Shown piece after piece: positions 848-21,048 of a DNA stretch of 40,327 bases. The notes beneath the pieces were generated by a model that worked only from the letters and a program-made list of their open reading frames with translations, was not told the DNA's origin and ran no database searches. Origin of the DNA: Teseptimavirus PDP351P2; sequence record OZ035763.1. One strand, written 5' to 3'. The position numbers and the translations under genes are program-made. How positions within the stretch are numbered: position 1 is the first letter of the stretch; the number at the start of each line of letters is the position of its first letter.

Positions 848-1330
848 GTGTCTACTCAATCCAATCGTAATGCGCTCGTAGTGGCGCAACTGAAAGGAGA
901 CTTCGTAGCGTTTTTGTTCGTCTTATGGAAGGCTCTGAACTTACCTGTACCAACTAAGTGTCAGATTGACATGGCTAAGGTACTGGCGAATGGAGACAAC
1001 AAGAAGTTCATCCTACAGGCTTTCCGTGGTATCGGTAAGTCATTCATCACATGTGCGTTCGTTGTGTGGTCCTTATGGAGAGACCCTCAGTTGAAGATAC
1101 TCATTGTATCAGCCTCTAAGGAACGTGCAGACGCTAACTCCATCTTTATTAAGAACATCATTGACCTGCTGCCGTTTCTCAGCGAGTTGAAGCCAAGACC
1201 CGGACAGCGTGACTCTGTGATTAGTTTCGACGTAGGTCCAGCTAAGCCTGACCACTCTCCTAGTGTAAAATCGGTAGGTATCACTGGTCAGTTAACTGGT
1301 AGCCGTGCTGACATTATTATTGCGGACGAT
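848..1330 (+). CDS. 19: terminase large subunit, exon 1 (codons 1-161)
   Basis: [19 protein letters not shown]... matches recalled T7 gp19 N-terminus; ATPase motif GIGKSF; frame ends ...IIIADD then GAA TAA. Confidence 0.9.
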
Positions 1331-2166
1331 GAATAACCATGTCGTCCTTAAACCCATCTAAACAGGGAAACCCGGAGCCTAACATGGTATACGGCAATCC
1401 TGTGCTAAATGAGACAGCCATAAAGAGCCTTATAGGCTCCCTAAGCGTCTCTAAATGCCAAACGACTAAGTAGTAGGGCCAAGTGGCTCGAAACGGTGGG
1501 AGAGCATTTACGGATGCTCTAAGATATAGTCTCGTCTATGGTGAGAAGCCATAGCACCATTTATTACGTAACACATAAGGAGTCTAACATGACCACTATG
1601 AAGAAAACTCGATATGAAGTAGGTTCAATCCATGAGTCCCCTAAAGGTCCGCTCAAGGTCCTCGAGTACATTCCGGGATATAAGGACCGCTCAACAGGTA
1701 AAAAAGTACATCCTCGCGTAGTAATTCGTATGATGAACACAGGGACTGTGCTCAACGTTCAAACCACGAATATACCAGATGGTAAGTTTGAGGACTATCG
1801 ACGTCCCACAGTTTACGGCATTGGGTATATAGGGTCTTCCATTAAAATCACCGCTAGAGGGACATTCATTCGGCGTGTGTATGACCTATGGGCCAACATG
1901 CTTAAGCGCGTGGTTCATGAGTATCAGGGAGTATCCGTGGACCCAAGATGGCTCAACTTTACGAATTTCTTGGCGACTATTCCTGATGTTAAGGGATATG
2001 CTGCGTGGGAGCGTGGTGAGGATGTTCATCTGGATAAAGACCTAGCTGGGAATAAACGATACTCATTGGAGAACTGTGCGTTCATTCCAGCTAAAGACAA
2101 CATTCGAGAGTCTTCGTTACGTAGGTGGCGTAAGAAATAACGAGCTTACGTTAAGATAATTATTCG
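1331..2166 (+). mobile_element. putative group I self-splicing intron interrupting gene 19
   Basis: Removing 836 bp restores a continuous 586-codon frame (ADD|VEIPSN as in T7 gp19); exon ends in T, insert ends in G; intron 1341-1347 GTCGTCC pairs with exon 1324-1330 GGACGAT giving a U-G wobble at the 5' splice site; core-like GACTAAG (1464-1470) and AAGATATAGTC (1521-1531). Confidence 0.75.
1589..2140 (+). CDS. intron-encoded putative homing endonuclease, 183 aa, degenerate HNH-like C-terminal motif
   Basis: ORF inside the insert with own SD (AAGGAG 8 nt upstream of ATG 1589); C-terminus VHLDKDLAGNKRYSLENCAFIPAKDN resembles an HNH motif; track ORF begins at upstream ATG 1538. Confidence 0.55.
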   Translation: MTTMKKTRYEVGSIHESPKGPLKVLEYIPGYKDRSTGKKVHPRVVIRMMNTGTVLNVQTTNIPDGKFEDYRRPTVYGIGYIGSSIKITARGTFIRRVYDLWANMLKRVVHEYQGVSVDPRWLNFTNFLATIPDVKGYAAWERGEDVHLDKDLAGNKRYSLENCAFIPAKDNIRESSLRRWRKK

Positions 2167-3444
2167 GTGGAAATTCCATCTAACAGTGCAACTATGGGTG
2201 CCCGTGAGAAGCTATGGACTCTCGTTCAGGAGTTCGCTGCGTTACTTAAACCGCTGCCTTCCTCTCGCGTTATCTACCTTGGTACGCCTCAGACTGAGAT
2301 GACTCTCTATAAGGAACTTGAGGATAACCGTGGGTATACCACTATCATCTGGCCCGCTCTGTACCCAAGGACTCGTGAAGAGAACCTATATTACGCACAG
2401 CGCCTTGCTCCTATGCTGCGTGCTGAGTACGATGAGAACCCTGAGGCACTCGCTGGGACTCCTACTGACCCTGTGCGCTTTGACCGTGATGACCTTCGTG
2501 AGCGTGAGTTGGAATACGGTAAGGCTGGCTTCACACTACAGTTCATGCTTAACCCGAATCTGAGTGATGCCGAGAAGTACCCTCTGAGGCTCCGTGACGC
2601 TATCGTAGCGGCCTTAGACTTAGAGAAGGCCCCAATGCATTACCAGTGGCTTCCGAACCGTCAGAACATCATTGAGGACCTTCCTAACGTTGGTCTTAAG
2701 GGTGATGACCTTCATACTTACCACGATTGCTCCAACAACTCTGGTCAGTACCAACAGAAGATTCTGGTCATTGACCCTAGTGGTCGCGGTAAGGACGAAA
2801 CAGGTTACGCTGTACTGTACACCCTGAACGGTTACATCTACCTTATGGAAGCTGGAGGTTTCCGTGATGGCTACTCCGATAAGACCCTTGAGTTGCTCGC
2901 TAAGAAAGCCAAGCAATGGGGAGTCCAGACGGTTGTCTATGAGAGTAACTTCGGTGACGGTATGTTCGGTAAGGTATTCAGTCCTATCCTTCTTAAACAC
3001 CACAACTGTGCTATGGAAGAGATTCGTGCTCGTGGTATGAAGGAAATGCGTATTTGTGATACCCTTGAGCCAGTCATGCAGACTCACCGCCTTGTCATTC
3101 GTGATGAGGTCATTAGGGCCGACTATCAGTCCGCTCGTGACGTAGACGGTAAGCATGACGTTAAGTATTCACTGTTCTACCAGATGACCCGTATCACTCG
3201 TGAGAAAGGTGCTCTGGCTCATGATGACCGATTGGATGCCCTTGCGTTAGGCATTGAGTATCTCCGTGAGTCCATGCAGTTGGATTCCGTTAAGGTAGAA
3301 GGTGAAGTGCTTGCTGACTTCCTTGAGGAGCACATGATGCGCCCTACGGTAGCTGCTACGCATATCATTGAGATGTCTGTGGGAGGAGTTGATGTGTACT
3401 CTGAGGACGATGAGGGATACGGTACGTCTTTCATTGAGTGGTGA
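2167..3444 (+). CDS. 19: terminase large subunit, exon 2 (codons 162-586)
   Basis: Frame resumes GTG GAA ATT ([17 protein letters not shown]...), collinear with recalled T7 gp19 to the C-terminus ...GYGTSFIEW. Confidence 0.9.
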
Positions 3445-3481: not shown

Positions 3482-3925
3482 ATGCTAAGTAAGAAGAAGT
3501 ATGTAGTCGATAAGGAGACTGGCTGCTGGAACTTTAAGGGTTGTAAGACGAAGAGTGGCTATGGTCGTCTCCGTGTAAATGGAGTCCATTGGATGGCCCA
3601 CAGGTATTCCCTGAGTTGTCATCTAGGCAGACCGATAGCTGACGGAATGGTTGTGATGCACCTGTGCGATAACCCATCGTGTGTTAACCCTGAGCATCTT
3701 AAGGAAGGGACTCAGAAGGAGAACATAGAGGATTGTATATCAAAAGGTAGGGCGATAAAGGCTACCGGTAAACGTGATGTGTCGAGAAGAGACCCTAGCG
3801 AGGAGCGTAAGGCTATAGTTATACGGCGCTACCATAAAGGATGGACAGCAACGTCCATAGCGAGATACCATAAGCTCTCTGTAGCGTGGGTAAAGAGGGT
3901 CATCGAGGCTTACCTAAGTGATTGA
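3482..3925 (+). CDS. free-standing HNH homing endonuclease (HNH_3-like)
   Basis: Strong SD AAGGAGG; motifs GC..GYGR, HR, HLCDNPSCVNPEHL, GTQKEN; no counterpart at this position in T7. Confidence 0.85.
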   Translation: MLSKKKYVVDKETGCWNFKGCKTKSGYGRLRVNGVHWMAHRYSLSCHLGRPIADGMVVMHLCDNPSCVNPEHLKEGTQKENIEDCISKGRAIKATGKRDVSRRDPSEERKAIVIRRYHKGWTATSIARYHKLSVAWVKRVIEAYLSD

Positions 3926-5774: not shown

Positions 5775-5825
5775 TAGGCTCAAGGTCGCTCAATACGAGT
5801 GGCCTTTATGATTATCACTTTACTT
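5775..5825 (+). promoter_or_regulatory. RNase III processing site R0.5-like
   Basis: GGCTCAAGG...GTGGCCTTTATGATT hairpin motif. Confidence 0.5.
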
Positions 5826-7493: not shown

Positions 7494-10145
7494 ATGAACA
7501 CGATTAACATCGCTAAGAACGACTTCTCTGACATCGAACTGGCCGCTATCCCGTTTAATACTCTGGCTGACCATTACGGTGAGCGTTTAGCTCGCGAACA
7601 GTTGGCCCTTGAGCATGAGTCTTACGAAATGGGTGAAGCACGCTTCCGCAAGATGTTTGAGCGTCAACTTAAAGCTGGTGAGGTCGCAGATAACGCTGCC
7701 GCCAAGCCTCTTATCACTACCCTGCTCCCTAAGATGATTGCACGCATCAACGATTGGTTTGAGGAAGTGAAAGCTAAGCGAGGCAAGCGCCCGACAGCCT
7801 TCCAGTTCCTGCAAGAAATCAAGCCGGAGGCGGTAGCTTATAGCACCATTAAGACCACTCTGGCTTGTCTAACCAGTGCAGACAATACAACCGTTCAGGC
7901 AGTAGCCAGCGCAATCGGTCGAGCCATTGAGGATGAAGCTCGCTTCGGTCGAATCCGTGACCTTGAAGCTAAGCACTTCAAGAAAAACGTTGAGGAACAA
8001 CTTAACAAGCGTGTAGGTCACGTCTATAAGAAAGCATTCATGCAAGTTGTCGAGGCTGACATGCTCTCTAAGGGTCTACTTGGTGGCGAGGCGTGGTCTT
8101 CGTGGCATAAGGAAGACTCCATTCACGTTGGGGTGCGCTGCATCGAGATGCTCATTGAGTCCACCGGAATGGTTAGCTTACATCGTCAAAATGCTGGCGT
8201 AGTAGGGCAAGACTCTGAGACTATCGAACTCACACCGGAATACGCTGAGGCTATCGCAACCCGTGCAGGTGCGCTGGCTGGTATCTCTCCGATGTTCCAA
8301 CCTTGCGTAGTTCCTCCTAAGCCGTGGACTGGTATTACTGGTGGTGGCTATTGGGCTAACGGTCGTCGCCCTCTGGCACTTGTACGTACCCACAGCAAGA
8401 AAGCACTGATGCGCTACGAAGATGTTTACATGCCTGAGGTGTACAAAGCGATTAACATTGCGCAAAACACCGCATGGAAAATCAACAAGAAAGTCCTAGC
8501 GGTCGCCAACGTAATCACCAAGTGGAAGCACTGCCCGGTCGAGGACATCCCAGCGATTGAGCGTGAAGAACTCCCGATGAAACCGGAAGACATTGACACG
8601 AATCCTGAGGCTCTCACCGCGTGGAAACGTGCCGCTGCTGCTGTGTACCGTAAAGATAAGGCTCGCAAGTCTCGCCGTATAAGCCTTGAGTTCATGCTTG
8701 AGCAAGCCAATAAGTTCGCTAACCATAAGGCCATCTGGTTCCCTTACAACATGGACTGGCGCGGTCGTGTTTACGCTGTGTCAATGTTCAACCCGCAAGG
8801 TAACGACATGACCAAAGGTCTGCTGACGCTGGCGAAAGGTAAACCAATCGGTAAAGAAGGTTACTACTGGCTGAAAATCCACGGTGCAAACTGTGCAGGA
8901 GTCGATAAGGTTCCGTTCCCTGAGCGCATCAAGTTCATTGAGGACAACCACGAGAACATCATGGCTTGCGCTAAGTCTCCTCTGGAGAACACTTGGTGGG
9001 CTGAGCAAGATTCTCCATTCTGCTTCCTTGCGTTCTGCTTTGAGTACGCTGGGGTACAGCACCACGGCCTGAGCTACAACTGCTCTCTTCCACTGGCGTT
9101 CGATGGGTCTTGCTCTGGCATTCAGCACTTCTCCGCGATGCTTCTCGACGAGGTAGGTGGTCTTGCTGTTAACCTGCTGCCTAGTGCAACCGTTCAGGAC
9201 ATCTACGGGATTGTCGCTAAGAAAGTCAATGTGATTCTGCAAGAAGACGTAATCAACGGGACCGACAACGAAGTAGTCACCGTGACTGACGAGAACACTG
9301 GTGAAATCTCTGAGAAAGTCAAGCTGGGCACCAAGGCGCTGGCTGGTCAATGGCTGGCTCACGGTGTTACTCGCAGCGTGACTAAGCGTTCGGTCATGAC
9401 GCTGGCTTACGGGTCCAAAGAGTTCGGCTTCCGTCAACAAGTGCTGGAAGATACCATTCAGCCAGCTATTGATTCCGGTAAAGGTCTGATGTTCACTCAA
9501 CCGAATCAGGCTGCTGGTTACATGGCTAAACTAATTTGGGAAGCTGTTAGCGTCACGGTGGTGGCTGCGGTTGAGGCAATGAACTGGCTCAAGTCTGCTG
9601 CTAAGCTGCTGGCTGCTGAGGTCAAAGATAAGAAGACTGGAGAGATTCTTCGCAAGCGTTGCGCTGTACACTGGGTAACTCCTGATGGCTTCCCTGTATG
9701 GCAGGAATACAAGAAGCCTATTCAGACTCGCTTGAACCTGATGTTCCTCGGTCAGTTCCGTCTACAACCGACCATTAACACCAACAAGGATAGCGAGATT
9801 GATGCACACAAGCAGGAGTCCGGTATAGCTCCTAACTTTGTGCATAGTCAAGATGGTAGCCACCTGCGTAAGACTGTAGTTTGGGCACACGAGAAGTACG
9901 GAATCGAATCGTTTGCACTGATTCACGACTCCTTCGGGACCATTCCGGCTGACGCTGCCAACCTGTTCAAAGCTGTGCGCGAAACTATGGTCGACACCTA
10001 TGAGTCTTGTGATGTACTGGCTGACTTCTACGACCAGTTCGCTGACCAGTTGCATGAGTCTCAATTGGATAAAATGCCAGCACTTCCGGCTAAGGGTAAC
10101 TTGAATCTACAAGACATCCTTAAGTCAGACTTCGCGTTTGCGTGA
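7494..10145 (+). CDS. 1: single-subunit DNA-dependent RNA polymerase (T7 RNAP homolog)
   Basis: 883 aa, MNTINIAKNDFSDIELAAIPFNTLADHYGERLAREQLALEHESYEMGEARF...; catalytic motifs DGSCSGIQH and HDSFGT. Confidence 0.98.
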   Translation: MNTINIAKNDFSDIELAAIPFNTLADHYGERLAREQLALEHESYEMGEARFRKMFERQLKAGEVADNAAAKPLITTLLPKMIARINDWFEEVKAKRGKRPTAFQFLQEIKPEAVAYSTIKTTLACLTSADNTTVQAVASAIGRAIEDEARFGRIRDLEAKHFKKNVEEQLNKRVGHVYKKAFMQVVEADMLSKGLLGGEAWSSWHKEDSIHVGVRCIEMLIESTGMVSLHRQNAGVVGQDSETIELTPEYAEAIATRAGALAGISPMFQPCVVPPKPWTGITGGGYWANGRRPLALVRTHSKKALMRYEDVYMPEVYKAINIAQNTAWKINKKVLAVANVITKWKHCPVEDIPAIEREELPMKPEDIDTNPEALTAWKRAAAAVYRKDKARKSRRISLEFMLEQANKFANHKAIWFPYNMDWRGRVYAVSMFNPQGNDMTKGLLTLAKGKPIGKEGYYWLKIHGANCAGVDKVPFPERIKFIEDNHENIMACAKSPLENTWWAEQDSPFCFLAFCFEYAGVQHHGLSYNCSLPLAFDGSCSGIQHFSAMLLDEVGGLAVNLLPSATVQDIYGIVAKKVNVILQEDVINGTDNEVVTVTDENTGEISEKVKLGTKALAGQWLAHGVTRSVTKRSVMTLAYGSKEFGFRQQVLEDTIQPAIDSGKGLMFTQPNQAAGYMAKLIWEAVSVTVVAAVEAMNWLKSAAKLLAAEVKDKKTGEILRKRCAVHWVTPDGFPVWQEYKKPIQTRLNLMFLGQFRLQPTINTNKDSEIDAHKQESGIAPNFVHSQDGSHLRKTVVWAHEKYGIESFALIHDSFGTIPADAANLFKAVRETMVDTYESCDVLADFYDQFADQLHESQLDKMPALPAKGNLNLQDILKSDFAFA

Positions 10146-10153
10146 TAGCAAAT

Positions 10154-10176
10154 TAATACGACTCACTATAGAGGGA
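10154..10176 (+). promoter_or_regulatory. T7 RNAP promoter phi1.1A
   Basis: TAATACGACTCACTATAGAGGGA. Confidence 0.85.
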
Positions 10177-10228
10177 CAAACTCAAGGTCACTTGAACGAG
10201 TGGCCTTTATGATTGACCTTCTTCCGGT

Positions 10229-10251
10229 TAATACGACTCACTATAGGAGAA
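10229..10251 (+). promoter_or_regulatory. T7 RNAP promoter phi1.1B
   Basis: TAATACGACTCACTATAGGAGAA. Confidence 0.85.
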
Positions 10252-10329
10252 CCTTAAGGTTTAACTTTAAGACCCTTAAGTGTTAATTAGAGATTTAGAT
10301 TAAAGAATTACTAAGAGAGGACTTTAAGT

Positions 10330-10458
10330 ATGCGTAACTTCGAAAAGATGACCAAACGTTCTAACCGTAACGCTCATGACTTCGAGGCAACTAAAGGTCG
10401 CAAGTTGAATAAGACTAAGCGTGACCGTTCCCACAAGCGTAGCTGGGAGGGTCAGTAA
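10330..10458 (+). CDS. 1.1: gp1.1 homolog, 42 aa basic protein
   Basis: MRNFEKMTKRSNRNAHDFEATKGRKLNKTKRDRSHKRSWEGQ read manually. Confidence 0.8.
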   Translation: MRNFEKMTKRSNRNAHDFEATKGRKLNKTKRDRSHKRSWEGQ

Positions 10459-10459
10459 G

Positions 10460-10732
10460 ATGGGACGTCTGTATAGTGGTAATCTGGCAGCATACAAAGA
10501 TATTATCAATCGTCTCAGAGAAGACCACGCTGTCGATGTGGTCGCTGAGAGTTATCGACGTGAAGACTACGCACAGCGCCGATGGGTAGCTGGTGAGACT
10601 CTTCGAGTGGTCTTACGGAATGGTGTAGAGCTAACATACAAGAGGTTCGAACACGACGACGAAGATGTACGCTGTAACGCACAGACCGAATGGTTACGCA
10701 AGGTGCATAGTGATTTGAAGCACTGGAAGTAA
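10460..10732 (+). CDS. 1.2: gp1.2 homolog (host dGTPase inhibitor in T7), 90 aa
   Basis: MGRLYSGNLAAYK... N-terminus matches recalled T7 gp1.2; track ORF 10421..10732 is an upstream extension. Confidence 0.8.
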   Translation: MGRLYSGNLAAYKDIINRLREDHAVDVVAESYRREDYAQRRWVAGETLRVVLRNGVELTYKRFEHDDEDVRCNAQTEWLRKVHSDLKHWK

Positions 10733-10752
10733 TACGACTCAGTATAGGAGGA
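10730..10752 (+). promoter_or_regulatory. T7 RNAP promoter phi1.3
   Basis: TAATACGACTCAGTATAGGAGGA, same CAGTATA variant as T7 phi1.3. Confidence 0.8.
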
Positions 10753-10756
10753 AACC

Positions 10757-11173
10757 ATGAAAGATGCCGACCGATTCAACGCAAAGACTGAACCATGCGG
10801 AGAATGTATTCGTTGGACTGGTCGAATCCAGCCTAACGGGTACGGTCAGTTCCGATTAAACGGTAAAACGCAGTATGCACACAGGGCAGCTTACACGCTG
10901 TTCCATGGAGAAATACCAGAAGGATACGTGGTTATGCACTCCTGCGATAACAGATGGTGCGTAAACCCAAGTCACCTAACTTTAGGGACACAAGCTGATA
11001 ACCTCATCGACATGACCAGAAAAGGTAGACACAGTAAGACTGTAATACCAAACGATCACATAGAGGGAATCAGGAACGATACCCGCTCTTCCTACGTAAT
11101 AGCTAGGGAGTGGGGAGTGAACCCATCAACTATCCAAAAGATTAAATCTGGAAAGAATAGGAGATTTGTATGA
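10757..11173 (+). CDS. free-standing HNH homing endonuclease (HNH_3-like) between phi1.3 and the ligase gene
   Basis: C..C...GYG..R, AHR, VVMHSCDNRWCVNPSHL, GTQADN; paralog of the ORF at 3482; in T7, phi1.3 is followed directly by gene 1.3. Confidence 0.85.
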   Translation: MKDADRFNAKTEPCGECIRWTGRIQPNGYGQFRLNGKTQYAHRAAYTLFHGEIPEGYVVMHSCDNRWCVNPSHLTLGTQADNLIDMTRKGRHSKTVIPNDHIEGIRNDTRSSYVIAREWGVNPSTIQKIKSGKNRRFV

Positions 11174-12198
11174 ACATTAAGACCAGCCCATTTAAAGCCG
11201 TGTCCTTTGTTGGGTCCGCTGTGAAGAAGGCATTAGACAACGCTGGATACCTAATCGTCGATTGTAAATATGATGGTGTACGTGGGAACATCTGCGTAGA
11301 CAACACTGCTAACAGTTGCTGGCTCTCTCGTGTTTCTAAAACGATTCCGGCACTTGAGCATTTGAACGGTTTTGACGCTCGCTGGCAACGCCTCCTTCGT
11401 GATGACCGATGCTTCTACCCTGACGGCTTCATGCTCGATGGTGAACTGATGGTCAAAGGTGTAGACTTCAACACTGGCTCCGGCCTTCTGCGCACCAAGT
11501 GGCTAAACAAGAAGAACTTTGAGTTCGACGTTGGCGGTGTACCACCACTCAAGGGGTCCAAGGTTGAGTTCGCGTTGGACACCAAACGTCTGAGTGTACG
11601 ACTATACGCTATCCTCCCTCTGCACATCGTGGAGTCTGGGGAAGACTGTGATGTCATGACGTTGCTCATGCAGGAACACGTTAAGAACATGCTGCCTCTG
11701 CTACAGGAATACTTCCCTGAAATCGAATGGCAAGCGGCTGAATCTTACGAGGTCTACGATATGGTAGAACTACAGCAACTGTATGAGAAGAAGCGTGAAG
11801 AAGGCCATGAGGGTCTCATTGTGAAAGACCCGATGTGCATCTACAAGCGAGGCAAGAAGTCAGGCTGGTGGAAAATGAAGCCAGAGAATGAGGCTGATGG
11901 TATCATTCAGGGTCTGATATGGGGGACCGAAGGTCTTGCTAATGAGGGCAAAGTGATCGGCTTTGAGGTGCTTCTTGAGAGTGGTCGTGTAGTTAACGCC
12001 ACAAACATCTCTCGCGCCTTAATGGATGAGTTTACAGCTGCATGTGATACGGACACATACCACCTTGCTGGTATAAACCCGTACCAAGGCTGGGCCTGCC
12101 AGATTAGCTACATGGAGGAAACACCTGATGGCTCTCTGCGTCACCCATCGTTCGTAATGTTCCGTGGCACAGAGGACAACCCTCAAGAGAAAATGTAA
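11170..12198 (+). CDS. 1.3: ATP-dependent DNA ligase (T7 gp1.3 homolog)
   Basis: 342 aa; MNIKTSPFKAVSFVGSAVKKALDNAGYLIVDCKYDGVRGN (adenylation motif KYDG); C-terminus ...SFVMFRGTEDNPQEKM. Confidence 0.95.
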   Translation: MNIKTSPFKAVSFVGSAVKKALDNAGYLIVDCKYDGVRGNICVDNTANSCWLSRVSKTIPALEHLNGFDARWQRLLRDDRCFYPDGFMLDGELMVKGVDFNTGSGLLRTKWLNKKNFEFDVGGVPPLKGSKVEFALDTKRLSVRLYAILPLHIVESGEDCDVMTLLMQEHVKNMLPLLQEYFPEIEWQAAESYEVYDMVELQQLYEKKREEGHEGLIVKDPMCIYKRGKKSGWWKMKPENEADGIIQGLIWGTEGLANEGKVIGFEVLLESGRVVNATNISRALMDEFTAACDTDTYHLAGINPYQGWACQISYMEETPDGSLRHPSFVMFRGTEDNPQEKM

Positions 12199-12203
12199 CA
12201 ACA

Positions 12204-12231
12204 CTGGCTCACCTTCGGGTGGGCCTTTCTG
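12204..12231 (+). terminator. early terminator TE (for host RNAP)
   Basis: GGCTCACC-TTCG-GGTGGGCC stem-loop followed by TTTCT; matches recalled T7 TE. Confidence 0.8.
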
Positions 12232-12235
12232 CGTT

Positions 12236-12258
12236 TAATACGACTCACTAAAGGAGGT
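12236..12258 (+). promoter_or_regulatory. T7 RNAP promoter phi1.5
   Basis: TAATACGACTCACTAAAGGAGGT. Confidence 0.8.
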
Positions 12259-12265
12259 ACACATC

Positions 12266-12358
12266 ATGATGTACTTAATGCCATTACTCATTGTCATTAT
12301 AGGATGCCTTGCGCTTCACTATACTGATGATGACGATATGCCAGATGGTCACGCTTGA
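12266..12358 (+). CDS. 1.5: gp1.5 homolog, 30-aa hydrophobic/acidic peptide
   Basis: MMYLMPLLIVIIGCLALHYTDDDDMPDGHA read manually; matches recalled T7 gp1.5. Confidence 0.7.
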   Translation: MMYLMPLLIVIIGCLALHYTDDDDMPDGHA

Positions 12359-12381
12359 CGACACCACTAAGGAGATACCTT

Positions 12382-12498
12382 ATGATGTACTTAATGCCAC
12401 CACTGATGCTATTCTTGGTGTCATTACTCATTCTCATCCCTGTATATGCTGTACTACGTGATGATGACGATGATGACACACAAGATGGTCACGCTTAA
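12382..12498 (+). CDS. second, divergent tandem copy of gene 1.5, 38 aa
   Basis: MMYLMPPLMLFLVSLLILIPVYAVLRDDDDDDTQDGHA; shares MMYLMP start and DGHA end with the first copy; own SD GGAGATACC. Confidence 0.6.
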   Translation: MMYLMPPLMLFLVSLLILIPVYAVLRDDDDDDTQDGHA

Positions 12499-12518
12499 TA
12501 CGACTCACTAAAGGAGAC
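12496..12518 (+). promoter_or_regulatory. T7 RNAP promoter phi1.6
   Basis: TAATACGACTCACTAAAGGAGAC. Confidence 0.8.
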
Positions 12519-12523
12519 ACTAT

Positions 12524-12784
12524 ATGTTTCGACTTCATTACAACAAAAGCATTAAGAACTTCACGGTTCGCCGTGCTGACCGTTCAATCGTATGTGCGAG
12601 CGAGCGCCGAGCTAAGTTACCTCTTATTGGTAACACAGTTCCTCTGGCACCGAGCGTCCACATCATTATCACCCGTGGTGACTTTGAGAAAGCAATAGAC
12701 AAGAAACGTCCGGTTCTTAGTGTGGCAGTGACCCGCTTCCCGTTCGTCCGTCTGTTACTCAAACGTATCAAGGAGGTGTTCTGA
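12524..12784 (+). CDS. 1.6: gp1.6 homolog
   Basis: [29 protein letters not shown]..., matches recalled T7 gp1.6. Confidence 0.85.
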
Positions 12785-13069
12785 TGGGACTGTTAGACGG
12801 TGCAGCTTGGGAAAAAGAAAATCAGCCTTCCGCTGAATCAATCGAAGGTGTCACTAAGCCTTCCCATTACATGCTGTTCGACGACATTGAGGCTATCGAA
12901 GTGATTGCCCGTTCAATGACTCGTGAGCAGTTCAAAGGGTATTGCTTAGGGAACATCCTTAAGTACCGCCTACGTGCTGGTAAGAAGTCCGAACTGGCTT
13001 ACTTAGAGAAAGACATGGCGAAAGCTGGCTTCTACGGTGAACTATATGAGAAACATAAGGATAAGTGTT

Positions 13070-14608: not shown

Positions 14609-15063
14609 TGGCTCGTGTACAGTTTAAACAACGTGAATCTACTGATGCAATCTTTGTCCACTGCTCGGCTACCAAGCCAAGTCAGAATGTAGGAGTTCGC
14701 GAGATTCGACAGTGGCATAAAGAGCAAGGTTGGCTTGATGTTGGGTATCACTTTATCATCAAGCGCGATGGCACAGTAGAGGAAGGCCGAGATGAGATGG
14801 CTGTAGGCTCTCACGCTAAAGGTTATAATCACAACTCTATTGGTGTCTGCCTTGTAGGTGGTATCGACGATAGAGGTAAGTTCGACGCTAACTTTACGCC
14901 AGCCCAAATGCAATCCCTCCGCTCACTGCTTGTCACACTGCTGGCTAAGTACGAAGGCGCTGTACTTCGTGCACATCACGATGTGGCACCTAAGGCTTGC
15001 CCATCGTTCGACCTTAAGCGTTGGTGGGAAACTAATGAACTGGTCACTTCTGACCGTGGATAA
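14608..15063 (+). CDS. 3.5: lysozyme / N-acetylmuramoyl-L-alanine amidase (T7 gp3.5 homolog)
   Basis: 151 aa, MARVQFKQRESTDAIFVHCSATKPSQNVGVREIRQWHKEQGWLDVGYHF... Confidence 0.95.
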   Translation: MARVQFKQRESTDAIFVHCSATKPSQNVGVREIRQWHKEQGWLDVGYHFIIKRDGTVEEGRDEMAVGSHAKGYNHNSIGVCLVGGIDDRGKFDANFTPAQMQSLRSLLVTLLAKYEGAVLRAHHDVAPKACPSFDLKRWWETNELVTSDRG

Positions 15064-15064
15064 T

Positions 15065-15087
15065 TAATTGAACTCACTAAAGGGAGA
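15065..15087 (+). promoter_or_regulatory. T7 RNAP promoter phi3.8
   Basis: TAATTGAACTCACTAAAGGGAGA. Confidence 0.8.
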
Positions 15088-15123
15088 CCCAAGCGGTTTC
15101 CCTTTCAACACAAGGAGGAAGCT

Positions 15124-17278
<2,155 letters not shown>

Positions 17279-17555: not shown

Positions 17556-17825
17556 ATGTCTAACGTAGCTGAAACTATCCGTCTATCCGATACCGCTGAC
17601 CAGTGGAACCGTCGGGTTCACATCAACGTTCGTAACGGAAAGGCTACTATGGTCTACCGTTGGAAGGACTCTAAGTCCTCTAAGAATCACACTCAGCGTA
17701 TGACGTTGACAGATGAGCAAGCACTGCGTCTGGTCAATGCGCTTACCAAAGCTGCCGTGACAGCAATCCATGAAGCTGGTCGCGCAGATGAAGCTATGGC
17801 TATCCTCAACAAGATTGATAGCTAA
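17556..17825 (+). CDS. 4.5: gp4.5 homolog, 89 aa
   Basis: MSNVAETIRLSDTADQWNRRVHINVRNGKATMVYRWKDSK...; track ORF 17529..17825 is an upstream extension. Confidence 0.85.
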   Translation: MSNVAETIRLSDTADQWNRRVHINVRNGKATMVYRWKDSKSSKNHTQRMTLTDEQALRLVNALTKAAVTAIHEAGRADEAMAILNKIDS

Positions 17826-17868
17826 GAGTGGTATACTCAAGGCCGCCCAAGTGGTGGCCTTCATGAAT
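17826..17868 (+). promoter_or_regulatory. RNase III processing site R4.7-like
   Basis: GTATACTCAAGGCCGCCCAAGTGGTGGCCTTCATGAATACT hairpin. Confidence 0.5.
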
Positions 17869-17891
17869 ACTATTCGACTCACTATAGGAGG
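17869..17891 (+). promoter_or_regulatory. T7 RNAP promoter phi4.7
   Basis: CTATTCGACTCACTATAGGAGGT. Confidence 0.75.
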
Positions 17892-17895
17892 TGGT

Positions 17896-18333
17896 ATGAA
17901 GATTTGTTCTAAGTGTGGGAATGGAAAACCGCTCACCGAGTTCGGAAAGGCTTCCCGCATGAAGGACGGTCTCAGAACTTGGTGTAAGGAGTGCGTCCGC
18001 AAAGATAACAATGCGAGATACCATAAGCACGATTCTGAGAAGCGAGAGGCTCACAGGTGGAGTTCGCGCAAATCTCAAATCAAGAAGTATGGCCTGACAG
18101 TAGAGCAGTACGAAGAACTATGGAACTCTCAGGAAGGAAAGTGTAAGATATGTGGTGACGCTATAATGGCACACTCATCTGAGAGGCATAAGGTAGCTTG
18201 TATTGACCACGACCATTTGACTTTGAAGGTTCGTGGACTTCTATGTTGGCACTGCAATATTGGCTTAGGTAAATTCTTCGATTCTACAGATAGGTTGGAG
18301 AATGCCATAAGGTATCTTAAAGGAGAACTCTAA
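17896..18333 (+). CDS. Endonuclease VII-like (Endonuclease_7 family) protein with N-terminal Cys cluster, at the gene 4.7 position, 145 aa
   Basis: CSKCGNGKP...CKEC; KYGLTVEQYEELWNSQEGKCKICGD...ACIDHDHLTLKVRGLLCWHCNIGLGKF...YLKGEL; track ORF 17770..18333 is an upstream extension. Confidence 0.8.
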   Translation: MKICSKCGNGKPLTEFGKASRMKDGLRTWCKECVRKDNNARYHKHDSEKREAHRWSSRKSQIKKYGLTVEQYEELWNSQEGKCKICGDAIMAHSSERHKVACIDHDHLTLKVRGLLCWHCNIGLGKFFDSTDRLENAIRYLKGEL

Positions 18334-20291
18334 TGATTGTCTCAGACATTGAATCAAACGGTCTACTTGAGACCACTACCAAATTTCACTGTGCGGTTAT
18401 CTATGACTACAGTACAGGAGAGTATACCAACTATCGTCCCACAGACTTTAGTAAATACCTTGACGCATTAGAGGCTGAGGTTTCAAAGGGAGGACTGATA
18501 GTAGGGCATAACTTCACTAAATTTGATATCCCCGCGTTGACAAAACTTGCTAAGTTACAATTGAACCGAGAGTTCCACATTCCCCGTGAGAACTGTATCG
18601 ACACCCTTGTGCTGTCACGTTTGATTCACTCTAACCTAAAGGACACCGATATGGGTCTTCTGCGTTCCGGTAAGTTACCCGGCAAACGCTTTGGGTCTCA
18701 CGCTTTGGAGGCGTGGGGTTATCGCTTAGGCGAAATGAAAGGTGAATACAAAGACGACTTTAAGCGTATGCTTGAAGAGCAAGGTGAAGAATACGTTGAC
18801 GGAATGGAGTGGTGGAACTTCAACGAAGAGATGATGGACTATAACGTTCAGGACGTTGTGGTCACTAAGGCTCTCCTTGAGAAGCTACTCTCTGACAAAC
18901 ATTACTTCCCTCCTGAGATTGACTTTACGGACGTAGGTTACACTACGTTCTGGTCAGAATCCCTTGAGGCCGTTGACGTTGAACATCGCGCTGCATGGCT
19001 ACTCGCTAAGCAAGAGCGCAATGGATTCCCGTTTGACACGAAAGCAATCGAAGAGTTGTACGTAGAGTTAGCCGCTCGACGCTCTGAGTTGCTCCGTAAA
19101 TTGACCGAAACGTTCGGCTCGTGGTATCAGCCTAAAGGTGGCACCGAAATGTTCTGCCATCCGAGGACCGGTAAGCCACTACCTAAATACCCTCGCATTA
19201 AGACACCTAAAGTTGGTGGTATCTTTAAGAAGCCTAAGAACAAGGCACAGCGAGAGGGCCGTGAGCCTTGCGAACTGGATACCCGCGAGTACGTTGCTGG
19301 TGCTCCTTATACGCCAGTTGAGCACGTGGTGTTTAACCCTTCGTCTCGTGACCACATTCAGAAGAAACTCCAAGAGGCTGGGTGGGTCCCCACGAAGTAC
19401 ACCGATAAGGGTGCTCCTGTGGTGGACGATGAGGTACTCGAAGGAGTACGTGTAGATGACCCTGAGAAGCAAGCTGCTATCGACCTCATTAAAGAGTACC
19501 TGATGATTCAGAAGAGAATCGGACAGTCTGCTGAGGGAGACAAGGCATGGCTTCGTTACGTTGCTGAGGATGGTAAGATTCATGGTTCTGTTAACCCTAA
19601 TGGAGCAGTTACTGGTCGTGCGACCCATGCGTTCCCCAACCTTGCGCAAATTCCGGGTGTACGTTCTCCTTATGGAGAGCAGTGTCGCGCTGCTTTTGGC
19701 GCTGAGCACCATTTGGATGGACTGACTGGTAAGCCTTGGGTTCAGGCTGGTATCGACGCATCCGGTCTGGAGCTACGCTGCTTAGCCCACTTCATGGCTC
19801 GCTTTGATAACGGTGAGTATGCTCACGAGATTCTTAATGGCGACATCCACACTAAGAACCAGATGGCTGCTGAACTGCCTACCCGTGATAACGCTAAGAC
19901 GTTCATCTATGGGTTCCTTTATGGTGCTGGTGACGAGAAGATTGGGCAGATTGTTGGCGCTGGTAAAGAGCGCGGTAAGGAACTCAAGAAGAAATTCCTT
20001 GAGAACACCCCAGCGATTGCAGCACTCCGAGAGTCTATCCAACAGACACTTGTCGAGTCCTCTCAGTGGGTAGCTGGTGAACAGCAAGTCAAGTGGAAAC
20101 GCCGCTGGATTAAAGGTCTGGATGGTCGTAAGGTACACGTTCGTAGTCCTCACGCTGCCTTGAATACCCTACTGCAATCTGCTGGTGCTCTCATCTGCAA
20201 ACTGTGGATTATCAAGACCGAAGAGATGCTCGTAGAGAAAGGCTTGAAGCACGGCTGGGATGGGGACTTTGCGTACATGGCATGGGTGCAT
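18333..20291 (+). CDS. 5: DNA polymerase, exon 1 (codons 1-653)
   Basis: [13 protein letters not shown]...collinear with recalled T7 gp5 up to ...FAYMAWVH; track ORF runs into the intron to 20315. Confidence 0.92.
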
Positions 20292-20892
20292 AAACTATTT
20301 CATTGTGCACATTAAATCTGGTGAACTCGGTGAAACCCTAATGGGGCAATACCGAGCCAAGCCATAGGGAGGATATATGAGAGGCAAGAAGTTAATTCTT
20401 GAGGCCACTGAGACTGGCTGTATCATCCCTACGTCACACAAACTTAATGCCGATGGTTATTTCAGAAAGAAAACCAATGGCGTCTTAGAGATGTATCACA
20501 GAACGGTGTGGAAGGAGCATAACGGAGAAATACCTGAGGGCTTCGAGATAGACCATAAGTGTCGCAATAGGGCTTGCTGTAATATAGAGCATTTACAGAT
20601 GCTTGAAGGTACAGCCCACACTGTTAAGACCAACCGTGAACGCTACGCAGACAGAAAGGAAACAGCTAGGGAATACTGGCTGGAGACTGGATGTACCGGC
20701 CTAGCACTAGGTGAGAAGTTTGGTGTGTCGTTCTCTTCTGCTTGTAAGTGGATTAGAGAATGGAAGGCGTAGAGACTATCCGAAAGGAGTAGGGCCGAGG
20801 GTGAGACTCCCTCGTAACCCGAAGCGCCAGACAGTCAACTCAAAGACTGATGATATAGTCCGACACTCCTAGTAATAGGAGAATACAGAAAG
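20292..20892 (+). mobile_element. group I intron in DNA polymerase gene 5
   Basis: Removing 601 bp restores a 704-codon gp5 frame (WVH|DEIQVGCRTEE); exon ends in T, intron ends in G; intron GTGCAC (20305-20310) pairs with exon GTGCAT (20286-20291) giving U-G at the splice site; GATATAGTCC core-like element at 20853-20862. Confidence 0.8.
20377..20772 (+). CDS. intron-encoded HNH homing endonuclease, 131 aa
   Basis: SD GGGAGG; motifs YHRTVW, EIDHKCRNRACCNIEHL, H-T. Confidence 0.8.
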   Translation: MRGKKLILEATETGCIIPTSHKLNADGYFRKKTNGVLEMYHRTVWKEHNGEIPEGFEIDHKCRNRACCNIEHLQMLEGTAHTVKTNRERYADRKETAREYWLETGCTGLALGEKFGVSFSSACKWIREWKA

Positions 20893-21048
20893 GATGAAAT
20901 ACAAGTAGGTTGCCGTACCGAAGAGATTGCTCAGGTGGTCATTGAGACCGCACAAGAAGCAATGCGCTGGGTTGGAGACCACTGGAACTTCCGGTGTCTT
21001 CTGGATACCGAAGGTAAGATGGGTCCTAACTGGGCCGTATGTCATTGA
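20893..21048 (+). CDS. 5: DNA polymerase, exon 2 (codons 654-704)
   Basis: DEIQVGCRTEEIAQVVIETAQEAMRWVGDHWNFRCLLDTEGKMGPNWAVCH matches the recalled T7 gp5 C-terminus. Confidence 0.9.
   Translation, partial: DEIQVGCRTEEIAQVVIETAQEAMRWVGDHWNFRCLLDTEGKMGPNWAVCH

Follow-up and report, generated by a model that had tools for sequence, protein, structure and literature searches.

A putative homing endonuclease gene of the HNH family in place of the leader between promoter phi1.3 and the DNA ligase gene of a T7-like phage

The junction between gene 1.2 and the DNA ligase gene

The window, by which we mean the whole stretch of 40,327 nucleotides analysed here, is a complete genome of a T7-like phage (Teseptimavirus) in circularly permuted form. 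Its top GenBank relatives by coverage, JeanTinguely, Bas103 and Bas104, are about 92% identical to it over 84-87% of its first 25 kb, and phages Yanou, 64795_ec1 and JeanTinguely are collinear with it except for a handful of insertions. An open reading frame on the + strand, beginning with ATG and encoding 138 aa (10757..11173), matches the HNH_3 family of Pfam (PF13392, E=3.4e-16, 59 bits against a cut-off of 24.8) and the PHROG family phrog_59, 'HNH endonuclease' (E=1.6e-36); Pfam also gives a sub-threshold match to zf-His_Me_endon, the zinc-binding His-Me endonuclease loop. An earlier note on this DNA had described a 138-aa HNH_3 protein at exactly these coordinates, and the Pfam match bears it out. 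The 5′ neighbour, also on the + strand, is gene 1.2 (10460..10732), coding for the inhibitor of the host dGTPase (Pfam T7-like_gp12, E=1.6e-12); its counterpart, a 273-nt CDS, is annotated at the equivalent position in Yanou and Bas104. The 3′ neighbour is gene 1.3 (11170..12198, + strand), which encodes an ATP-dependent DNA ligase (Pfam DNA_ligase_A_M and DNA_ligase_C). The earlier note called this an essential gene, which is too strong: gene 1.3 of T7 is dispensable on ligase-proficient hosts, and the neighbour is thus better described as conserved than as essential.

Transcripts from phi1.3 would start very close to the first HNH codon. A scan for the consensus of T7 promoters that tolerated as many as 3 mismatches gave 10 matches in the window and 0 in shuffled sequences. 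One of them, TAATACGACTCAGTATAGGAGGA (10730-10752, + strand), is phi1.3, confirming the position immediately 5′ of the HNH gene that the earlier note had given it. Its initial 3 bases are the TAA stop of gene 1.2, and it is identical to phi1.3 of T7 from -17 through +2. If the promoter is written as TAATACGACTCAGTATA|GGAGGA, with +1 inferred at G10747, the HNH ATG follows the start site at a distance of 10 nt. The GGAGG at promoter positions +1 to +5 (10747..10751, + strand), 5 nt 5′ of this ATG, would act as the HNH Shine-Dalgarno sequence; the leader of the phi1.3 mRNA would then be only 10 nt long and would begin with the Shine-Dalgarno itself. Because this places it at the extreme 5′ end of the transcript, expression of the HNH gene from phi1.3 may be poor. 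In the Teetrevirus-type loci L011 and L024-L026 an equivalent layout, CAGGAGAAACGAA ATG, is seen behind the T3-type promoter.

At the other end, the ligase ATG (11170-11172) overlaps the HNH stop codon TGA (11171-11173) in the tetranucleotide ATGA (11170-11173), as the earlier note had also seen. The ligase Shine-Dalgarno sequence AGGAGA (11159..11164, + strand) lies within the final HNH codons and moves with the HNH gene across genera: the 3′ end AA[TC]AGGAGAT[TA][TC]GTAT recurs in the Teetrevirus-type loci L024-L026 and in the Minipunavirus phiA020. The ligase ribosome binding site (RBS) of a T3-like backbone without the HNH gene differs from the HNH-borne one. Given this difference and the conservation of the 3′ end, the HNH element appears to supply its own signal for coupling to the ligase. 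Scans of positions 10100-12500 for sigma-70 promoters and intrinsic terminators gave nothing above shuffled expectation, and no terminator was found between the HNH gene and the ligase gene. Beyond the ligase gene, two small adjacent ORFs (12266..12358 and 12355..12498) encode similar peptides (MMYLMP...DDDD..DGHA), and BLAST maps positions 12236-12384 and 12465-12789 to overlapping coordinates in relatives, which suggests a short local tandem duplication at 12235-12500.

The limits of the inserted DNA can be drawn precisely. Alignment with the empty site of pO111, with T7 and across 19 Teseptimavirus junctions defines a segment of 421 bp (10749..11169, + strand), answering the comparison of ligase loci that the earlier note had proposed as a check. 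HNH-less relatives have in common with the window the promoter through TATAGG and the ligase gene from ATGAACATTAAG, and the leader between these shared boundaries measures 65 nt in pO111 and 67 nt in T7. The segment thus occupies the place of the 65-67-nt phi1.3-ligase leader found in the HNH-less T7, pO111 and JeanTinguely, its left junction falling within the initially transcribed bases of the promoter. Here the earlier note has to be corrected: it had phi1.3 followed directly by the ligase gene in T7, whereas T7 has, from the phi1.3 start site to the ligase ATG, a 66-nt leader bearing the R1.3 hairpin. The HNH segment is therefore a replacement of this leader rather than an addition to an empty junction.

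The displaced leader folds into a hairpin, AAGGTCGCTC...GAGTGGCCTT, with a predicted energy of -19.5 to -23 kcal/mol and z scores of -3.0 to -3.6 in T7 and pO111; in T7 this hairpin is R1.3, a site of RNase III processing. It is conserved at loci without the HNH gene in several T7-like lineages, behind T7-type, T3-type and other promoters, and no comparable fold was found in the 421-bp segment of the window. A motif search for its core, AAGGTC[AG]CT...AGTGGCCTT, located only two copies in the window, at 5782-5806 and 10184-10207, which by their positions are presumably the equivalents of R0.5 and R1.1.

The HNH protein and the other nuclease genes of the genome

Three parts can be recognised in the HNH protein: an N-terminal beta region bearing C14 and C17 (residues ~1-40), a beta-beta-alpha-Me core containing H61, N70, H73 and N82 as well as C63 and C68 (residues ~58-88), and a three-helix HTH (residues ~99-130). 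Residues H42, R43, H61, C63, C68, H73 and N82 are invariant in 66 of 66 homologues, C17, W20, G28-G30, D64, N65, N70 and P71 are nearly so in the same set, and the copy in the window retains every invariant residue. A sequence search of the PDB gave 0 matches at E≤1, and an exact-sequence lookup returned no record of the protein, the nearest clusters being 95-98% identical. The AlphaFold (AF2) model (pLDDT 92.7) comprises N-terminal beta hairpins, a beta-beta-alpha unit (58-61, 74-77 and 79-88) and three C-terminal helices. Foldseek matched this model best to I-HmuI (1u3e, probability 1.00), with I-PpoI next. In the predicted fold the putative catalytic His ends beta1 and the putative metal-binding Asn or His lies in the helix, the arrangement of a beta-beta-alpha-metal nuclease.

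Sequence comparison points to purifying selection on the gene. The dN/dS ratio is 0.15 when the gene is compared with that of 64795_ec1 and 0.11-0.12 for the Teetrevirus-type copy of E-2 (locus L026), in comparisons that cover dS values of 0.1-1.9 between orthologues, and all copies compared are 137-138 aa long. A copy of the Bas104 type on a Logan contig (ERR9710127; L065, 3001-3414) carries the substitutions D64A and D81G at positions that are otherwise near-invariant or conserved, with a dN/dS of 0.68 against Bas104, and may be inactivated or decaying.

The genome holds at least five HNH-type genes, including two intron ORFs. The gene for the large terminase subunit is split into ORFs 848..1336 and 2167..3444, in different frames, by an insertion of ~838 bp (1291-2167) that Yanou, 64795_ec1 and JeanTinguely lack. 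This insertion matches the group I intron family RF00028 (49 bits, gathering score 50, E=3e-11) and contains an ORF of 200 aa (1538..2140) with no Pfam match and a match to phrog_2081, 'HNH endonuclease' (E=5e-45); gene 19 probably contains a mobile group I intron. A second group I intron (20282-20893; RF00028, 44.9 bits, E=4e-10) interrupts the DNA polymerase gene, and the intron ORF (20377..20772) encodes a 131-aa HNH_3 protein; JeanTinguely has the same layout, annotated as a joined CDS and a homing endonuclease, and the intron is missing from Yanou and 64795_ec1. A free-standing HNH_3 gene with HNH_3 and HTH_23 domains follows the terminase gene (3482-3925) and has counterparts in Yanou and JeanTinguely. 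The earlier note rightly named this ORF (3482..3925) as a paralogue of the ligase-linked one (40% identity over 102 aa, E=3e-20). Another free-standing HNH_3 gene (15124-15606) sits in a variable stretch (~15063-15754) of the lysozyme-primase interval, at the position of T7 gene 3.8. A 187-aa ORF immediately 5′ of the DNA polymerase gene (17770-18333) ends in an Endonuclease_7 domain (E=2.7e-20).

Two other kinds of phage HNH gene were considered for the ligase-linked ORF and set aside. It is not the ORF of a group I intron: it stands between two complete genes, and Rfam found no match around it (10400-11400) at the gathering threshold or even at E≤1, against E~1e-10 for the two real introns of the window. 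HNH packaging factors of the HK97 gp74 kind lie next to terminase or portal genes and are needed for packaging; the present ORF belongs to the early/class II region, where gene 1.2 and the ligase gene flank it, and most relatives do without it.

Distribution among relatives and signs of movement

The HNH gene is scattered among close relatives. By megablast, a near-identical gene is present in only 3 of 236 phage records matching the flanks, and these represent two phages. By tblastn, orthologues with aa identities of 60% or more are present in about 23 GenBank phage records, and the matches that follow drop under 50%. The orthologues span 60-98% aa identity and at least three genera of the Studiervirinae, and can be sorted into three sub-lineages: one 95-98% identical to the window protein (Yanou, 64795_ec1), a second at 70-75% (Teetrevirus-type phages of Klebsiella, Enterobacter and Shigella, together with the Minipunavirus phiA020) and a third at 60-62% (Bas104, ESh1, ESh3 and Yersinia phage WW2). 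Metagenome assemblies add eight more clusters at 95-98%, the inspected contigs sharing the gene order, and 4 of 47 ligase loci from IMG/VR contain an orthologue.

In every case inspected the orthologue adjoins the ligase start, in backbones as distinct as Teseptimavirus, Teetrevirus, Minipunavirus and an unclassified Yersinia phage. What lies 5′ of it varies between promoters of the T7 and T3 types and a small ORF without a phage promoter. According to the earlier note, presence at this place in all close relatives, together with a lack of nuclease activity, would have refuted its reading; most Teseptimavirus genomes in fact lack the gene. It is missing from 15 of 24 aligned Teseptimavirus-type loci, as well as from T7, pO111 and JeanTinguely, and is found in the window, Yanou, 64795_ec1, four metagenomic contigs, Bas104 and L065. 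Presence and absence are thus sporadic, at a fixed site, in otherwise closely related genomes. A distinct HNH gene (38-40% identity) lies directly 5′ of the ligase gene in the Przondovirus-like loci L040, L043 and L059 (2576-2983), 3′ of a retained hairpin of the RNase III type, and represents a separate colonisation of this intergenic region. Other putative homing endonuclease genes are located at the 3′ end of the ligase gene in JeanTinguely (L007, 11089-11559) and Patroon (L068, 3034-3333), so that nuclease genes adjoin either side of the ligase in different relatives.

The comparative evidence and the I-HmuI-like predicted fold fit a free-standing homing endonuclease linked to the ligase. 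What lies at 10757..11173 is an intact and conserved gene with exact boundaries, which recurs across genera at this one site and is linked to its flanks. We consider it likely that this gene encodes a free-standing homing endonuclease of the HNH_3 / His-Me finger type; catalysis, target, strand specificity and homing are what we infer from these features. The ORF is real and intact, and its product is probably an active enzyme of this kind, judging from the sequences compared.

Homing would be expected to leave traces in the flanking DNA. Yanou, which has the HNH gene, and JeanTinguely, which lacks it, are mostly 97-100% identical in gene 1, with a single dip to 92%; in the ligase gene, identity is 72-83% over the first ~400 bp and ≥95% thereafter. 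A similar step is seen on a T3-like backbone between E-2 (with the gene) and L034 (without): identity upstream is mostly 97-100%, with a single dip to 91%, and in the ligase gene it is 58-93% over the first ~450 bp, then 95-99%. Between the window and Bas104 identity next to the gene climbs back to 100% in a gradient (0.64-0.69, 0.8-0.87, 0.9-0.96 and 1.0). Independent genomes with the HNH gene are one another's nearest neighbours only at 10450-10729 and 11176-11325; elsewhere the nearest genome is often one without it. On the left, the linked flank (10450..10729, + strand) has an HNH-bearing nearest neighbour for the window, Yanou, 64795_ec1 and L062, and at 10600-10729 the minimum identity inside the HNH-bearing group (0.892) exceeds the maximum to any HNH-less genome (0.877). 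On the right, identity profiles link the first ~150-450 bp of the ligase gene to the presence of the HNH gene. The gene 1.2 allele of the window is of the JeanTinguely, or non-T7, type, with 38-50% aa identity to T7-type gp1.2 and 77-79% to the alleles of four more distant T7-like contigs, and every HNH-bearing Teseptimavirus compared carries an allele of this type.

As a control, the gp1.2-ligase region was found to be mosaic among HNH-less genomes also, their mean pairwise identity being 0.70-0.75 in gp1.2 and 0.75-0.90 in the 5′ part of the ligase gene, and pO111, which lacks the HNH gene, has nearly the window's 5′ ligase allele (0.92-0.99). The identity steps are therefore not specific proof of conversion driven by an endonuclease, and we regard the evidence for co-conversion from these alignments as suggestive rather than conclusive.

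The same mosaicism, which makes the region a general hot spot of recombination even where the HNH gene is absent, could be read in another way: the gene may be an accessory nuclease kept for the benefit of the phage, attacking the genomes of co-infecting competitors or host DNA, or processing phage DNA, with its patchy distribution due to ordinary modular recombination of the early region. Purifying selection would be expected for such a gene, and the unrelated nuclease genes at both ligase ends in other T7-like phages agree with it as well. We nonetheless think this explanation unlikely. The gene is dispensable, most close relatives including T7 managing without it, and the recurrence of a single ligase junction despite different promoters fits site-specific insertion or repair better than free shuffling of modules. 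Exclusion of competitors, moreover, is compatible with homing, both requiring the same site-specific cleavage.

Pairwise identities, from which we read the incongruence in place of a formal tree test, indicate that the phylogeny of the HNH gene conflicts with that of the backbone. The HNH protein of the window is 74-75% identical to those of Patroon and E-2 (Teetrevirus-type) and 70% identical to the Minipunavirus copy, phages whose RNA polymerase C-termini are 89% and 78% identical, respectively, to that of the window. Bas104 and WW2 have RNA polymerase C-termini that are 98-99% identical to it and HNH proteins that are only 60-62% identical. Inheritance from a common ancestor of the Studiervirinae, followed by repeated loss of a gene that never moved between genomes, would account for its equal position relative to the ligase gene in several genera and for its constant association, within the Teetrevirus-type group, with T3-like backbones. 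It would not produce HNH proteins more divergent (60-62%) where the polymerases are nearly identical than where they are 78-89% identical (70-75%), and every loss would have had to bring back the native R1.3 leader exactly, which requires recombination with an HNH-less genome; this makes the scenario very improbable. Least probable is an inactive relic, a once-mobile HNH gene now carried as a passenger for the ligase RBS and start context in its 3′ end: the location of these signals inside the ORF does constrain clean deletion, and the L065 copy, with D64A, D81G and its raised dN/dS, indicates that decay occurs in the lineage, but the window copy has every invariant residue, dN/dS stays at 0.11-0.15 across large synonymous distances, copy length is conserved throughout, and ligase translation needs just the last ~15 nt, which leaves the 138 codons unconstrained thereby.

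A proposed homing cycle and its relation to known systems

If the gene is a free-standing homing endonuclease, its life in the phage could be as follows. It would be transcribed together with gene 1.3 from phi1.3 and also on upstream early and class II transcripts, its translation would begin at the Shine-Dalgarno sequence formed by the promoter's first transcribed bases, and ribosomes would be passed on to the ligase gene via the ATGA overlap and the RBS inside the HNH 3′ end. Thanks to this overlap and the embedded RBS, ligase expression could persist although the native leader with its R1.3 site is gone. In a mixed infection the enzyme would recognise one specific site close to the gp1.2-ligase junction of an HNH-less genome, most probably within, or just 5′ of, the 5′ part of the ligase gene, and nick or cut it. 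Recombinational repair of the T7 type, templated by the HNH-bearing genome, would then copy the gene with a few hundred bp of flank, and inheritance of the locus would be biased toward the HNH-bearing parent. A single-strand nick would be the likeliest chemistry, by analogy with the HNH homing endonucleases I-HmuI, I-BasI and I-PfoP3I, which nick one strand (PMC3428280), and from the single active site of the 138-aa monomer.

The position of the target was approached by contrasting the ligase 5′ sequences of 32 HNH-less and 9 HNH-bearing loci in 24-nt windows. No block (0) was both highly conserved in the former and consistently altered in the latter; the best (11245-11257) was 0.83-0.87 conserved and 0.26-0.31 different, which is unconvincing. 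The displaced R1.3 hairpin was an attractive candidate, being conserved across genera and deleted in HNH-bearing phages, yet this possibility is weakened: the hairpin core alone is an unlikely target because the phage's own genome has two further copies, and cleavage there would be self-destructive.

The locus offers a cleanly delimited example of a probable homing endonuclease gene settling in a compact T7-like genome, where the first transcribed bases of the promoter would double as an RBS, an RNase III site is replaced and the downstream RBS is carried inside the element. The gp1.2-ligase junction appears as a recurrent landing place for nuclease genes, and for that reason the stretch should serve neither as a neutral marker nor as a site for insertions. 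Should it turn out to be site-specific, the enzyme would provide a new nicking or cleaving specificity, and could be a tool or a hazard in mixed cocktails of T7-type phages. It seems doubtful to us that a ligase-linked HNH cassette homes across Studiervirinae genera and rewrites its neighbourhood in three ways with each move; if it did, the R1.3 RNase III site would be erased, ligase translation would become dependent on the element, and the 3′ part of gene 1.2 and the 5′ third of the ligase gene would be carried along. The gp1.2 allele type determines sensitivity to exclusion by PifA of the F plasmid (PMC8594841), and a selfish nuclease of this sort would drive the exchange of alleles at a locus that matters for host range and defence.

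Elements of this kind are well known, and close orthologues are already deposited as 'HNH endonuclease' or 'endonuclease'; a ligase-linked HNH gene is in itself fairly ordinary and raises no new question for the field. In the literature we found no paper on this ligase-linked lineage, on an element at the 1.2/1.3 junction or on the loss of R1.3. In its predicted architecture, with an N-terminal beta region, a core and a C-terminal HTH, the protein resembles I-HmuI of phage SPO1 (PDB 1U3E), relatives of which, I-HmuII, I-BasI, I-TslI and I-PfoP3I, are likewise HNH homing endonucleases that nick one strand. The seg and mob genes of T-even phages are free-standing homing endonucleases that spread by 'intronless homing'. 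Like these and cyanophage F-CphI, which lies next to psbA, the HNH gene is intergenic, sits beside a conserved gene and occurs sporadically, and the T-even and cyanophage genes also have co-converted flanks. These enzymes differ in belonging mostly to the GIY-YIG family (Seg) or to other HNH subfamilies, in other phage families, and in that their cleavage and homing have been demonstrated, whereas the present protein is known by sequence and predicted fold. The concept of intronless homing by free-standing phage endonucleases is cited in PMC3428280.

Nearer to the present case, the T7-like genome of Hafnia phage Ca (Autographiviridae) contains a small HNH gene that overlaps the ORF on either side and that some members of one phage population carry and others lack; unlike ours, it lies 5′ of the large terminase subunit gene and not the ligase gene, and belongs to a different HNH lineage (PMC8861465). 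The HNH_3 ORFs of T7 gene 7.7, of the gene 3.8 position and of the window at 3482..3925 share Pfam family and size with the ligase-linked protein (identity to both T7 gp7.7 and the 3482 ORF is about 40%) and are also free-standing, sporadic and on the same strand, but occupy other loci with neighbours of their own, whereas the present lineage is tied to the ligase start. Closest of all are ORF12 of the Cedecea phage Yanou (UTQ78047.1, 'HNH endonuclease', 138 aa, 97.8% aa identity) and gp06 of Escherichia phage 64795_ec1 (YP_009291484.1, 'endonuclease', 138 aa, 94.9% aa identity). Annotated by similarity, both differ from the HNH protein of the window by few substitutions, and their genes lie as in the window between gene 1.2/phi1.3 and the ligase gene, with an equal 4-nt overlap.
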